Source: a virus
Direction: 5' to 3' (one strand)
Length of the DNA: 64,000 bases
Virus record (IMG/VR): IMGVR_UViG_3300021959_000011
Location: 76,927 to 140,926 of that record
Made by a program: the position numbers and the translations under genes. Below, one piece after another: positions 4,892 to 43,136 of the stretch (positions within the stretch are counted from its first letter, which is position 1; each line of letters begins with the position of its first letter). The notes under the pieces were generated by a model. That model had not been told where the DNA came from and did not search any database. It worked only from the letters and a program-made list of their open reading frames with translations.

Positions 4892-5182
4892 CTACTTATC
4901 TTTATTCTTTAAAAACTCATCTATTTCTTCTTCAGTTGGTATTTTTTGTTCTTTAGATTGTAAAATCATATTTAATTTTGTATTTAGTCTAATTAAATCA
5001 TTATCCATCATTCTTATGCGATCAATTAATGCAATCAAAGTCATATGAGATTCTTCGATTACAGGGTCGACTTCCTTAGTAACCCAATTCCAAATATAAA
5101 ATATGAAATATCCTAGTCCTACCGCAGCGATTATTGGAAATCCATACTGCGATACTAAATCACCTAAATTTTGATCTGGCAT
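4892..5182 (-). CDS. Single-TM coiled-coil protein, holin-like; paralog of 5554-5841
   Basis: YGFPII TM segment; DRIRMMDNDLIRLN. Confidence 0.6.
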   Translation of the reverse strand: MPDQNLGDLVSQYGFPIIAAVGLGYFIFYIWNWVTKEVDPVIEESHMTLIALIDRIRMMDNDLIRLNTKLNMILQSKEQKIPTEEEIDEFLKNKDK

Positions 5183-5385: not shown

Positions 5386-5551
5386 TTTCAGCACCAATTT
5401 TTTCAAAGTACCCATTTGGGCCAACTCTATAAACATCACCGATTTGTAATTCAACATCATCAATGATAAAAAATTTATCATCTGGATTTTTATTTGTCAA
5501 AATGCGAAAACCATTTTGAAATTTCATTAGTAGTAAATCTTTCCACAACAT
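5372..5551 (-). CDS. Small hypothetical protein (59 aa, MLWKDLLLMKF...)
   Basis: Hand translation, below ORF-track cutoff; fills the operon gap. Confidence 0.6.
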   Translation of the reverse strand: MLWKDLLLMKFQNGFRILTNKNPDDKFFIIDDVELQIGDVYRVGPNGYFEKIGAENVMG

Positions 5552-8947: not shown

Positions 8948-10240
8948 TTAAATTTTCATAATATAAAAAATTGCATAATATGGTGGTCGGTTTTCATGGC
9001 CATTTCCACCACCAGCGGAACCAGTAGTACCACTAAAGTTGTGTTGATGGTCTCCAATATGTCCTGTCTGTCCAGTAATTGTATGAGTATGTGCCCCTGC
9101 AGGTCTAATAGTATCTTGCCAATCTTCTAGTAATCTTTCTGCATCATCACTAAATGCACCAACACCATCTTTCTGACTACCATAATTTCCACGATCATTT
9201 GCATAAATTTGGTGTATGTGTTGACCTGCTTGATCTGTTTTTAATGTACCAGCTGTATGAGAATGTCCACCGCCGGGCCCGGCACTTAATCCACTACCAT
9301 CGTGAGTATGATTTGGCATCTGGGCATCTGTTAAAGTGACTGATGCAGATCCACCAGTAGTATTTACTGCATAACTATCCCCTGCCCCTACAACAAATCT
9401 ATTTCTCAAATCTGGAGTACCGTTTGCACCATTACATAAGGCCCAACCAGTAGGAATATTAATTTCGGAACCATGCCACATAATGATAGAACCGGCCGGC
9501 ATTAAATTATTTGCAAAGTTAGTAATAGATTCTGTATCTAGATTAGTAACATGTCCTTCACCATCTAATGTAACACCTTGTACAACCACACTAGAAACAC
9601 TACTTGCATTAGATGTATTTGCATGAGAAATTGTAAGAGTACCAGCAGTATCATTATATGCAGTATTAATACCATTACCACCAGAGATTAATGCATTAAC
9701 TCTATCATCAACTCTTTCATTTGTATGATATAAATTACTACCCTCTGTTAAGTCAGAAGTACTCTTTGATGCAAGGTCACTATTGAAATCAGAAGAACTA
9801 TAACTGGTAACACTAATTACACCAGTACTTGAATCATACGTAACATCACCACCAGCTGAAATTGCAGCACGTACTCTTGCCGCTGTGTGATACTGATTGG
9901 TACTACCTTCTGTTAGATTGTCAGTAGTTGCATTATTAGAATCGTAAACTTCGGAAATAATAGTTGATAACAAATCTGCACCAACATTTTTAGTGAGTAA
10001 AGTAATTTCTGGTGGCGTTACACCTTGATTAAAATATGCAACATCAAACCAATCGTCATCAGTTGCATTACGCATCTTTAAAATATGATTTGTTGTATCA
10101 TACCACCACATATGTGCAAATGTATTTGGTGGTGTTGATGGATTTGCATTATTAGAAACAATTGCCTGCAAGGCATCATTTATTTCTAATCTAAGATCGC
10201 TTGCAGTTTGATCCGATAGGACATAATCACTTACTGCCAT
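8948..10240 (-). CDS. Tail fibre with collar-like domain and HxH tip motifs
   Basis: NLTEGS.NLY repeats; PAGSIIMWHG...GWALCNG..GTPDLRNRF collar; HTH/HSH/HIH/HTH/HQH; late promoter 10272-10279. Confidence 0.85.
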   Translation of the reverse strand: MAVSDYVLSDQTASDLRLEINDALQAIVSNNANPSTPPNTFAHMWWYDTTNHILKMRNATDDDWFDVAYFNQGVTPPEITLLTKNVGADLLSTIISEVYDSNNATTDNLTEGSTNQYHTAARVRAAISAGGDVTYDSSTGVISVTSYSSSDFNSDLASKSTSDLTEGSNLYHTNERVDDRVNALISGGNGINTAYNDTAGTLTISHANTSNASSVSSVVVQGVTLDGEGHVTNLDTESITNFANNLMPAGSIIMWHGSEINIPTGWALCNGANGTPDLRNRFVVGAGDSYAVNTTGGSASVTLTDAQMPNHTHDGSGLSAGPGGGHSHTAGTLKTDQAGQHIHQIYANDRGNYGSQKDGVGAFSDDAERLLEDWQDTIRPAGAHTHTITGQTGHIGDHQHNFSGTTGSAGGGNGHENRPPYYAIFYIMKI

Positions 10241-10349: not shown

Positions 10350-10703
10350 TTAGAATGAGAACGATGCACCAATACTAATATCACCAACACCCCAATCTTT
10401 ATCTGTGGTAGTTTTTCCATATACTTCCATGCCGGATACACTGGCAATTGGTGCAGTAATTTCATATTGCATAGATGTAAATTCAATATCTTCTAAATCG
10501 ATAACATTTGGTCCGACTTCGAATGATGCAACACCTAAATCCCATGTGAAATCTGCTTCATATGTGATGGCATTGGTTTCTGTTTCTAAGTTTCTTTCTG
10601 CGGTAAATTCATTATTAAATGACATTCCATTTCCAAGATCAATCGCAGATGCTGTGCCTGCTGTGGCCAAGATTAAAGCTGCAGCTGTTAATACGTTTTT
10701 CAT
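10350..10703 (-). CDS. Small outer-membrane beta-barrel/porin-like protein
   Basis: Signal peptide, alternating beta pattern, C-terminal IGASFSF (BAM-type beta-signal). Confidence 0.7.
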   Translation of the reverse strand: MKNVLTAAALILATAGTASAIDLGNGMSFNNEFTAERNLETETNAITYEADFTWDLGVASFEVGPNVIDLEDIEFTSMQYEITAPIASVSGMEVYGKTTTDKDWGVGDISIGASFSF

Positions 10704-10729
10704 TATAGTTCTTTCTAATTAGAGTTAAA

Positions 10730-11052
10730 GTACGACTACTTCTGTTGCCAAGTGAGCCGCCAACTCCGTTAGAATCAAGCTGCGATAGCCATCTCTACAG
10801 GTGCAAAATTATCGTTTGCATTTATTATTGTTGACCGAATAACGTAGGTCATCACGGCAATCTACTCTCATCTCTACACACCTGTCGATCCTAGTTCGCC
10901 CCCATCATAAATGCACTAACTTCGACCGCCACTTACGGGCCATCTATGTTCTGCAAAACTTCCTGTTGCAGCAGGACATAGTGCATTTATGGTGGAGGCG
11001 TTGGGTACTGCCCCCAAGTCCAGTATGTATGTTGAATCGTATCAACGACTAC
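10730..11052 (-). ncRNA. ssrA: Permuted two-piece tmRNA (alphaproteobacterial type)
   Basis: Acceptor piece ends CGCCTCCACCA at 10990. Coding piece starts GGGGGCG at 10903, giving G3.U70. Tag frame 10819-10775 reads ANDNFAPVEMAIAA-stop. Outer ends approximate. Confidence 0.93.
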
Positions 11053-11057
11053 AAATA

Positions 11058-11088
11058 TATTTATACACTATACTCTGTAAAATGTCAA
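11058..11088 (-). promoter_or_regulatory. Overlapping sigma70 and late promoter for tmRNA
   Basis: TTGACA-17-TATAAA whose -10 lies within TATAAATA. Confidence 0.65.
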
Positions 11089-11121
11089 TACATTTCTATA
11101 TGAAATATAGTGTGTTGTATT

Positions 11122-11334
11122 TTAGTCACTCCAACCATTTCTACTAAGTGCGAATGCACCATAACCAAACATAAACAAACCACCAATGGAGCCAATTGCA
11201 GTTTGCCATAATGGAATCGGTTCAATATCTACTCCCGACATAATAAGTTCCATTGTGTAATCATCATTACCAACAAAACCCAACATAATAAACAATCCAC
11301 TAAAGCAGATAATTCCATTGATTATATTTTTCAT
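11122..11334 (-). CDS. Small two-TM membrane protein
   Basis: ORF track; two hydrophobic stretches. Confidence 0.6.
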   Translation of the reverse strand: MKNIINGIICFSGLFIMLGFVGNDDYTMELIMSGVDIEPIPLWQTAIGSIGGLFMFGYGAFALSRNGWSD

Positions 11335-41707: not shown

Positions 41708-42238
41708 TTATATCCAAATTTTAGGATAAAATTCAGTTTTTGTCGTATCCTTATCGAAAAGATACCAACAAGAATTATCTTTACCAGTATGTTTTGAACC
41801 TTCAATCCATTTAACTCTACCAATAGATACTATCTTACTGCACATAGGCAAATATGGTGTTGCCTGTTTTGTGTGCATCCAATCCGCATCAAAGAGTAAC
41901 CATGTAGGTGCCTGCTTGGTAAAATGTAGAATCATAGGATGTAATAACCACCTAGTCCAAGGTGGATTTGTAATAATTAAATCCACATTTTCTGGAATTG
42001 TAGAATCGAGTGCATCTTTCTTTTCTACCCAATCAACTTGGGGGTCACAATCAGATGCACCTATTGATTTGCCGTTTGTAAGGCCTTCTGTAAACTTTAC
42101 AAGTCTACCATCCCCTGCACATGGTTCCCAAAATGTGAAATCATGTTGTGGTAAGAATGGAATTAGAGGACGAAATGCATCCTCTGGAGTAGGATACAAA
42201 TCATTTTTTCTACGGCGAAATTCACTACGTTTACCCAT
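41708..42238 (-). CDS. Orphan amino-DNA methyltransferase (N6-A/N4-C)
   Basis: YPTP, EPCAGDG (motif I), ITNPPW (motif IV). Confidence 0.8.
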   Translation of the reverse strand: MGKRSEFRRRKNDLYPTPEDAFRPLIPFLPQHDFTFWEPCAGDGRLVKFTEGLTNGKSIGASDCDPQVDWVEKKDALDSTIPENVDLIITNPPWTRWLLHPMILHFTKQAPTWLLFDADWMHTKQATPYLPMCSKIVSIGRVKWIEGSKHTGKDNSCWYLFDKDTTKTEFYPKIWI

Positions 42239-42515
42239 CTTCGTTATTATCAAATTTAGGAGTGAATGTTTCCATTAGAGCTTCAATATCTTCTATTTCT
42301 CCGGCAACTTCACTCATATTCTGTTTATGATAAATCCTAGACATTTTACGTAAAATCTTTTTAGGAATATCAACTTCTTCTGACAAGTTTTCGATTGCTT
42401 CCTTGACAAAACTTCTTTCACCCTCAGTACGTGTATACGAATTACTAATTTCTTCCATACACTCACGTATTTTTTTCTGATCTTGAGGATTTGATGGGAT
42501 TATTATACCAGACAT
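42231..42515 (-). CDS. dsbA: T4-like dsDNA-binding protein DsbA
   Basis: EISNSYTRTEGERSFVKE...PKKILRKMSRIYHKQN. Confidence 0.7.
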   Translation of the reverse strand: MSGIIIPSNPQDQKKIRECMEEISNSYTRTEGERSFVKEAIENLSEEVDIPKKILRKMSRIYHKQNMSEVAGEIEDIEALMETFTPKFDNNEDG

Positions 42516-42540
42516 ATTTCACCTTAGATAATTAATTAAA

Positions 42541-42576
42541 ATGGGCCCGTTCTGTTACTAAGTGGAACCCATACTC
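42541..42576 (-). promoter_or_regulatory. 3' hairpin resembling the tmRNA coding-piece 3' end
   Basis: GAGT-N8-CACTTAGTAACAGAA vs tmRNA GAGT-N8-CACTTGGCAACAGAA. Confidence 0.55.
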
Positions 42577-42588
42577 TAGTTTAACTAC

Positions 42589-42858
42589 TTATGCAGTGCG
42601 TAGTGCAGCATGTCCAGCGGCAACAACAGCGCGAGTAGGCGTACCAATCATATATTTCATATACGACTTGCCATCAAATGATGATGTACGTTTATTGAGA
42701 TAGATTGAATACCCCTCACTACGAAGTTTACTAATCACCGCACGTACATTTTTCACACCATATCGTGCAGAAATTTGTTTTGCGGTTAATTGAGCACCAC
42801 CCAATAGGGCGTTTGCTACTCTAGTAGTTTGAGTTTCTTTTCTAGTTGTATTAGTCAT
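42589..42858 (-). CDS. Winged-HTH DNA-binding protein
   Basis: LTAKQISARYGVKNVRAVISKLRSEGY; Ala-rich C-terminus. Confidence 0.75.
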   Translation of the reverse strand: MTNTTRKETQTTRVANALLGGAQLTAKQISARYGVKNVRAVISKLRSEGYSIYLNKRTSSFDGKSYMKYMIGTPTRAVVAAGHAALRTA

Positions 42859-43136
42859 ATTATATTCTCCTGTAGATTACATGACAAAGTTTCAGTTTTA
42901 AGTCTTTTGGTTTCGGTAGAACTCACACCGATACATTAGAAATGTGTCAGAATCTACCTGTCATCATTTCCATATGTTCTAATTTCATTAAGGCCATTTC
43001 TTCGTTTGCAGATTGAAGTTCGGATCCATATATTTCTTCCCAATATTCTTTACCCATTCTACCATACGAGTTGACATATTGTTCCTTTGTCATCCACGTA
43101 ATATCTTCTTCCATCGCAAAAACAAACTGACCCATT

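Follow-up and report, generated by a model that had tools for sequence, protein, structure and literature searches.

A copy of the tmRNA terminal pseudoknot lies behind a winged-helix gene in a T4-like marine phage

Why should a protein-coding gene of a marine phage be followed by the same RNA element as a transfer-messenger RNA (tmRNA) gene 32 kb away? The question is raised by IMG/VR virus record IMGVR_UViG_3300021959_000011, of which we analysed the right part, a stretch of 64 kb referred to below as the window. The record (140.9 kb, ~70% complete) is assigned to a T4-like marine myophage, has Pelagibacter phage HTVC008M and Methylophilales phage Melnitz as its nearest named relatives, and encodes thymidylate synthase, DHFR and a DsbA-like regulator. 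Among the genes of the window are four tRNA genes, a permuted tmRNA gene and a small helix-turn-helix (HTH) gene of the HTH_39 family. An earlier note on this DNA had pointed to the likeness between the 3′ ends of the last two, and had proposed either that the HTH gene captured a tmRNA 3′ module giving it a built-in ssrA-like degron, or that both RNAs share an unrecognised 3′ processing or protein-binding element. We find that the element behind the HTH gene, PK′, is homologous to the terminal pseudoknot of the tmRNA, PK; both pair as pseudoknots, the HTH gene is the neighbour of the tmRNA gene in related phages, and PK′ is under purifying selection. On balance we lean towards the view that PK′ is a paralogous copy acting at the 3′ end of the HTH message.

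The tmRNA gene is of the permuted (two-piece) alpha type and occupies, together with its promoter region, positions 10729-11092 on the minus strand (Rfam RF01849, 137 bits; RF04321, 122 bits; ARAGORN tag ANDNFAPVEMAIAA). Its tag reading frame (GCA...GCU UGA) lies at 10775-10819, minus strand, as given by ARAGORN and the sequence, with the RF04321 match ending at 10775. The minus strand from 10777 to 10726 reads ...GCAGCU UGA UUCUAACG GAGU UG GCGGCU C ACUU GGCAACAGAAGU AGUCGU ACUUUA, so that GAGU begins eight bases past the tag stop. PK itself (10732-10766, minus strand) consists of the flank GAGU (10763-10766), a stem S2 of 6 bp, two of them G.U, between GCGGCU (10755-10760) and AGUCGU (10732-10737), and a loop (10738-10754, CACUUGGCAACAGAAGU) holding ACUU at 10750-10753 and the third loop, L3, GGCAACAGAAGU; the tail after the 3′ arm is ACUUUA. 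PK scores 34.6 bits with R2, a covariance model built from tmRNA-linked copies of other genomes that contains neither the window sequence nor any PK′. The Rfam alpha_tmRNA consensus closes with a highly conserved stretch, GGGGUUCGGAGgcACCuGGCAACAGAAacCucCACU, to which PK can be aligned; the A-rich loop of PK is therefore a feature of the alpha-type tmRNA family and not peculiar to this phage; the loop RGYAACAGAA is nearly invariant in phage and alphaproteobacterial tmRNAs, while the stems vary freely. For the post-tag pseudoknot (PK2) of two-piece alpha-proteobacterial tmRNA, Keiler, Shapiro and Williams (2000) are said to be the source. Beta-type two-piece tmRNAs have an analogous end element, with the loop CCUUGUUAC..AA in the Rfam RF01850 consensus and a GGGG flank that, judged by eye, pairs with CCUU. 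The shared element is thus not unrecognised, as the earlier note had it: it is the post-tag pseudoknot, an established part of the coding piece of two-piece tmRNA (PMC3985003). SmpB was not found in the 141-kb record.

PK′ lies behind the HTH gene (42589-42858, minus strand, 89 aa, stop TAA at 42589-42591). It spans 36 nt at 42541-42576 on the minus strand, where the sequence from 42591 to 42535 reads ...ACUGCA UAA GUAGUUAAACUA GAGU AUGGGUUC C ACUU AGUAACAGAAC GGGCCCAU UUUAAU. The 5′ strand of helix S1 is GAGU (42573-42576), and the arms of S2 are AUGGGUUC (42565-42572) and GGGCCCAU (42541-42548); the 16-nt loop between them (42549-42564, CACUUAGUAACAGAAC) contains the 3′ strand of S1, ACUU (42560-42563), and the A-rich L3 AGUAACAGAAC (42549-42559). 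The stem has 8 bp, two of them G.U and four G-C, and is followed by a run of four U, counting the last stem base. As the earlier note stated, the stems of the two copies differ and yet both pair, and the 15-nt core agrees at 13 of 15 positions. The PK′ core, CACUUAGUAACAGAA, carries the CCUGGCAACAGAA-type loop signature and aligns to the Rfam and R2 consensus sequences. PK′ resembles PK2 of Rfam RF01849 in topology, flank, loop signature and tail, and the consensus aligns to PK and PK′ alike; it differs in standing outside any tmRNA gene, behind a protein gene, and in having U in the loop where tmRNAs mostly have C (GUAAC versus GCAAC). Upstream of PK′ there is neither a tRNA-like domain nor a tag frame; ARAGORN and Rfam place a tmRNA only at 10.7-11.1 kb, and tmRNA and tRNA genes gave the only Rfam matches in this DNA. 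In the whole record the module occurs twice, as PK and PK′, and is therefore not a genome-wide repeat.

That an ordinary terminator hairpin should resemble the tmRNA end by chance is highly improbable. Matches to the tmRNA core with up to three mismatches are indeed expected by chance (2.3 per window), and one such match, at 10578-10592 within a gene, is of chance level; moreover, R2 gives the window PK′ an E value of only ~0.1 (15.5 bits, against 43 bits with R1). However, a match with at most two mismatches is expected 0.17 times per window, and besides the tmRNA only 42550-42564 provides one. Flank pairing, stems and position agree with it, unambiguous copies stand at the same site in relatives, and the copy of the closest relative is identical. 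We assign the window PK′ to a divergent subgroup of the modules. Since its folding energy is undistinctive (-8.4 kcal/mol, z = -0.5) and its R2 score low, support was taken from comparison with relatives.

A nucleotide search with the HTH region against 50,697 phage records gave no match, and relatives were therefore sought through the HTH protein; a protein-guided scan of IMG/VR yielded 129, of which 80 (70-93% identity) were kept. From related phage contigs 35 distinct alpha-type modules were parsed by one fixed rule, the flank triplet being the last G-N-G before a U upstream of the stem and the loop triplet the bases 6 to 4 nt before AACAGAA. Flank and loop read GGG/CCU in 26 modules, GAG/CUU in 8 and GCG/CGU in 1; the middle pair is Watson-Crick in 35/35, in three pair types, which none of 100,000 permutations equalled. 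This covariation indicates that the module is an H-type pseudoknot, in which the flank pairs with the first loop bases, and not the plain terminal hairpin described before. In both window copies GAGU pairs with ACUU, which explains why GAGT had been noticed at identical spacing: the distance from GAGU to the core is indeed 8 nt in both, whereas that from the stop to GAGU is 8 nt in the tmRNA and 12 nt behind the HTH gene. The minimum-energy fold of the tmRNA copy, in which the flank pairs with the ACUUU tail, was set aside for the flank-loop pairing, since covariation with the flank (G-C, A-U, C-G) is seen for the loop base and not for the tail U. The main stem measures 6-12 bp and has many different sequences. 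When 80 distinct copies from phages and bacteria are aligned, all seven modelled stem pairs vary on both sides, and 88% of stem cells are paired, compared with 72% in shuffles and 41-60% with slid partners. Only the sense strand has G.U pairs in its stems, a sign of RNA and not of duplex DNA.

The relatives also reveal where PK′ may have come from. In 68/80 contigs the HTH gene is immediately preceded, in the same orientation, by a permuted tmRNA or, at a contig edge, by the terminal pseudoknot of one (53 called by ARAGORN, 15 by the pseudoknot only; 4 further contigs are too short to judge). Usually tmRNA-PK is followed by a small hairpin, then by the conserved leader UUUGUCAUGAyAAGGAG and HTH. 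Right after the HTH stop, nine contigs (L014, L040, L053, L056, L063, L064, L068, L072 and L084) have a second alpha-type pseudoknot, and five contigs with a beta-type tmRNA (L026, L029, L041, L043 and L086) have a beta-like one, with the loop ACCUUUACCmAAC and a flank, AAGG or GAGG, pairing with CCUU. The gap from the HTH stop to PK′ is 7 nt in five relatives and 12 nt in the window and L063, compared with 7-8 nt after the tag stop. The covariance-model scan that the earlier note had suggested succeeds on the relatives, where R2 gives the elements behind HTH in L072, L064, L084, L040, L053 and L063 36-48 bits (E 1e-6 to 1e-9), and leaves the window copy marginal. Conservation of the loop behind HTH homologues, likewise anticipated there, is seen in these fourteen contigs; the distant homologues in HTVC008M, Melnitz and DLP_6 have no tmRNA-type loop behind them, and the module is confined to the close clade. 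Ordinary intrinsic terminators occupy the same site in other homologues (L081-L085, Melnitz, DLP_6).

In the closest relative (G001/L088) the order is tRNA-Pro, tRNA-Arg, tmRNA, HTH, PK′, a third module with the same stem, and dsbA. Downstream of HTH the window matches this relative, from which it differs by the tmRNA being 32 kb away. The phage of the window thus belongs to a lineage with tmRNA and HTH side by side; it has been rearranged, and its HTH gene kept the module. The idea that the gene captured a tmRNA 3′ module therefore holds in this form: PK′ is a paralogue of the terminal pseudoknot, and HTH is the immediate downstream neighbour of the tmRNA in relatives. The stand-alone PK′ behind this usual neighbour gene is what is new; the pseudoknot itself was already known from tmRNA.

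Comparison at the nucleotide level argues for selection on PK′. Between the window and L014 the HTH core protein is 97% identical and third codon positions 46%, and the nucleotide identity is 77% for the HTH gene and 78% for dsbA. By contrast, PK′ is identical to the copy of the closest relative (L088 5631-5665) at 35/35 nt (100%), with flanks at 77%, and between L040 and L084 third positions agree at 71% and PK′ at 38/38. Because 35/35 nt are identical while third codon positions stand at 46%, PK′ is under purifying selection. Three PK′ lineages can be told apart by their stems, UGGGGUU/AACCCCA, AUGGGAGU/ACUUCCAT (as RNA, AUGGGAGU/ACUUCCAU) and AUGGGUUC/GGGCCCAU; all of them pair, and all three lineages retain the flank-loop helix. 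In their tmRNA pseudoknots, by contrast, the window and L014 differ strongly in the stems. An identical PK′ together with compensated stems is not what a neutral scar would look like.

These patterns bear on a different explanation, namely that the module is a recombination joint or scar, a mark of exchange with no role of its own in the HTH transcript. An insertion behind the tmRNA could have left it as a direct repeat of the 3′ end of that gene, or it could be a joint for modular shuffling like the PeSL elements, which are conserved exchange points in T4-like phages (PMC4122927, PMC2839356). We think this doubtful, but the region is mosaic: the order of tRNA, tmRNA and HTH genes differs among the window, G001 and G002, and the same HTH-PK′ unit stands behind tmRNAs with different pseudoknots (L040 and L064 versus L072 and L084). 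The left half of the window PK′ aligns with the PK′ of G001, and its right half, together with the downstream DNA, with the third module of G001, so that it looks like a fusion of two G001 modules. Furthermore, five near-identical tmRNA-end hairpins delimit cassettes in a Pelagibacteraceae genome. However, compensatory changes preserve both PK′ helices in three lineages, and PK′ stays identical where the sequence on either side has diverged, which is the pattern of selection and not that of a scar in decay. Within one genome PK and PK′ have different stems, making the two poor substrates for homologous exchange, and the 141-kb record, ~70% complete, gave no match to an integrase (PF00589). A role in recombination and a role as RNA do not exclude each other. 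PeSLs are like the module in being short, conserved, structured intergenic elements at the borders of swapped cassettes in variable regions of T4-like phages; they differ in consisting of an early promoter plus a stem-loop and in being present many times per genome, whereas the module has no promoter, occurs in two copies and is tmRNA-derived (PMC2839356, PMC4122927).

A scan of bacterial genomes for ACCTGGCAACAGAA returned mostly alphaproteobacterial tmRNA ends, one per locus. The Pelagibacteraceae single-cell genome AG-414-J16 has five near-identical tmRNA-end hairpins over ~6 kb behind its tmRNA (locus L225, G006:C1:24000-36500; positions 4906-4939, 5459-5502, 10184-10206, 10406-10428 and 11110-11150, all on the minus strand). 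The cassettes between them encode a cupredoxin, a 59-aa membrane protein, and sigma-70 region-4, HATPase_c_3 and SET-domain proteins. These copies have no S1 flank, three are preceded by the palindrome TTATTCGCGAATAA, and no integrase was in view near them. In a second Pelagibacteraceae genome (G008), two extra copies are located on another contig. According to 'Traffic at the tmRNA gene' by Williams, direct repeats of tRNA and tmRNA gene 3′ ends reportedly flank integrated islands and prophages. The AG-414-J16 copies look like such att-type repeats, in which the 3′ end of the tmRNA gene is duplicated beyond the inserted DNA. PK and PK′, in contrast, belong to a T4-like phage in which no integrase was found (141-kb record), are non-identical with their fold kept by compensatory change, and include in PK′ the S1 flank that the island copies are missing. 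Use of ssrA as a site of integration has been mentioned (PMC9004378).

The near invariance of the loop RGYAACAGAA beside varying stems could alternatively reflect a shared binding site, with the A-rich loop read by some factor of the host or the phage (for instance a ribonuclease, ribosomal protein S1 or the HTH protein) and the HTH message handled or regulated together with the tmRNA. In its favour, the PK′ sequence is kept beyond the needs of pairing, tmRNA and HTH are linked in 68/80 contigs, and phages with a beta-type tmRNA mostly have beta-like loops behind HTH (L026, L029, L041, L043, L086). We nevertheless consider it quite improbable. The HTH protein has a generic winged-helix fold, of the kind typically found in proteins that bind duplex DNA. 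The matching of loop types could be common descent, and it breaks down in the discordant cases L040, L064 and L008. An invariant A-rich loop 3 is also explicable by tertiary contacts inside the pseudoknot.

The degron proposal rested on the protein ends. The tag ends in EMAIAA and the HTH protein in GHAALRTA, both Ala-rich as stated, and both frames close with an Ala codon followed by the stop (GCN TAA). The final HTH codons of some relatives resemble the end of the tag, with CUGCGUAAU in both in L053 and CUGCAUAAUU in both in L063, and 10/45 distinct homologues end in RAA. Even so, an Ala-rich HTH C terminus copied from the tag and targeting the protein to ClpXP is scarcely credible. Proteases read the hydrophobic ALAA-type end of the tag, whereas the window protein ends in LRTA, which is charged and polar (PMC3985003). 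In the AlphaFold2 model the Ala-rich stretch of the tail is part of a conserved C-terminal helix (residues 76-88, predicted local distance difference test (pLDDT) ~81-85). The ends after ...AAG(Y/H)xALR vary among the 45 distinct homologues (TA, SA, GA, AA, VA, S, A, ST, AV, DNYSW, TASVTA, GTSHTATA), and the AAG..AL motif is also present in the homologues of HTVC008M, Melnitz and DLP_6, all of them without the module. The weak Rfam alpha_tmRNA alignment over the HTH 3′ ends of L053 and L063 is meaningful over the pseudoknot only and not over the coding part, and the last codon and stop shared by tag and HTH (GCN GCN TAA) are not separable from chance. Thus the resemblance to the ssrA tag recognised by ClpXP is limited to Ala-rich C termini ending in Ala; in the HTH protein this end is not conserved, lies inside a predicted helix and lacks a hydrophobic LAA or VAA terminus. 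We take the tail to be probably an ordinary helix of a winged-helix protein, unconnected to the tag.

On the basis of these comparisons, a shared 3′ processing or protein-binding element is the favoured direction, and we propose the following model. The module has an H-type fold in which a flank rich in purines, GAGU, is paired with ACUU at the start of the loop, the second helix is a 6-12-bp stem free to vary in sequence, and the third loop, A-rich (RGYAACAGAAY), is the conserved signature of alpha-type tmRNAs. As a rule HTH_39 is, in this lineage, the next gene after the tmRNA gene and has the same orientation; some members have it bracketed by two modules (tmRNA-PK, HTH, PK′), and in the phage of the window a rearrangement has put the tmRNA 32 kb away while PK′ stayed with HTH. 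On the sense-strand RNA, PK′ may form or protect the 3′ end of the HTH message, either as a barrier to 3′-to-5′ trimming or as a pause or weak terminator, and PK may have the same role at the 3′ end of the tmRNA coding piece.

Several observations weigh against this proposal. The 3′-end role of PK′ is deduced from its position, its hairpin is thermodynamically ordinary, the U run is short, and under R2 it scores marginally, though still as the second-best match in the genome. A different element takes its place in about 65/80 relatives, and the module is thus not indispensable. In most relatives HTH follows the tmRNA pseudoknot with no clear promoter between them, and the module is therefore not an efficient terminator; a role in processing or stability fits better. 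An intrinsic terminator has a G+C-rich stem, a short loop and a U run; PK′ has four G-C pairs in its 8-bp stem, a 16-nt loop and four U. A consensus terminator scan made no call at PK′, as the loop exceeds the 8-nt limit of that scan. Finally, the 35-nt identity spans stems and loop, which is more than the structure needs; a partner that reads the sequence, or a short patch exchanged recently, could account for the excess. A genome-wide scan for large-loop hairpins with a flank-loop helix found 6 sites, compared with 1-4 in shuffles, none of them like the module, which speaks only weakly against a genome-wide class because the filter is too strict to catch PK′ itself.

The HTH protein belongs to Pfam PF14090 (E 1.6e-5) and phrog_4973 (function unknown). 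Its AlphaFold2 model is a winged helix-turn-helix with a C-terminal helix (pLDDT 82.7), and Foldseek returned generic winged-helix matches only. The conserved leader (UUUGUCAUG...AGGAG; 42859-42888, minus strand) corresponds to the motif TTTGTCATGAyAAGGAG found between tmRNA and HTH in relatives. In the window it also scores as TTGTCA-17-TATAAT, yet the -10 box abuts the ATG, and the motif TTTGTCATG is not enriched across the window. On the other side of PK′, tail and spacer (UUUAAUUAAUU...; 42516-42540, minus strand) lead up to the gene that follows, reaching its Shine-Dalgarno sequence and start. This gene encodes a T4 DsbA-like transcription regulator (42231-42515, minus strand; Pfam PF11126, E 1.4e-7; phrog_639) and likewise lies behind HTH in G001. 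The conserved tmRNA-HTH_39 gene pair names a candidate regulator in these phages.

Other structures were seen around the HTH gene of relatives. In L014 a palindromic insert of 66 nt with a long stem separates PK′ from the HTH stop (1726-1795, = L088 5557-5626), and the third module of this relative (1897-1965, = L088 5728-5796) has the same arms (AUGGGUUC...GGGCCCA) with a nested hairpin in place of the loop. In most relatives PK′ is replaced, just past the HTH stop, by a conserved two-hairpin element, CGGGUGAUGCCGUAAUACAUCCG then GGGGGGUCAUGGUUAACCCCCC and AACUU, whose stems covary (L018 ~1755-1815; also L007, L016, L017, L025, L042, L065 and most other loci); it had no Rfam match at E up to 0.1. 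A recurrent hairpin, UAUACUAACGCACUAAGGCGAGUAUA, follows directly behind PK′ or the HTH stop (L053 1803-1830; L023, L040, L064, L072, L075, L084). Some phages of this clade (L026 1145-1471, L041, L054 and L086) have a beta-type two-piece tmRNA (RF01850, 122 bits) before the same HTH gene, replacing the alpha type; a single phage lineage has thus exchanged one tmRNA type for the other.

The named phages add related cases. HTVC008M (KC465899.1, ~145120-145461; L224 821-1162, plus strand) has a permuted tmRNA, absent from its GenBank annotation, with the tag ANFNEYALAA and the same pseudoknot module; the gene after it encodes a DUF1599 protein and not an HTH_39. In Melnitz (MZ577097.1) the glutamine riboswitch reported for this phage (RF01739, 52.8 bits; L091 1081-1129, minus strand) lies just past the tmRNA pseudoknot (L091 1132-1179) and precedes a small unannotated reading frame, of which it looks like the leader and not like a part of ssrA. 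Melnitz also has a weak module-like pseudoknot at 137830-137873 (L002 830-873; GGGUUUU GGUAGUUU CCCUCACAAA AAACUACC; R1 21 bits), behind a 34-aa frame and before a TATAAATA late promoter, ~570 nt upstream of the HTH homologue.

The pseudoknots of tmRNA are usually regarded as folding aids within that molecule. Here one of them is found under strong selection outside tmRNA, behind a protein gene, in abundant uncultured ocean phages, which suggests that the module, chiefly its invariant A-rich loop, acts apart from ribosome rescue, for example in 3′-end protection or factor binding. A wider and, in our estimate, unlikely generalization is that the terminal pseudoknot with its invariant GCAACAGAA loop is an autonomous, portable module read by a conserved cellular factor to set the fate of RNA 3′ ends, reused by marine T4-like phages and SAR11 islands as the 3′ boundary of gene cassettes; the HTH message would in that case share the handling of the tmRNA, independently of trans-translation. 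Partial tmRNA matches in phage and SAR11 genomes should be read with caution, as they can be stand-alone modules or island borders and not broken genes. PK and PK′ together provide a simple two-copy system for testing a role of the tmRNA pseudoknot that is independent of ribosome rescue.

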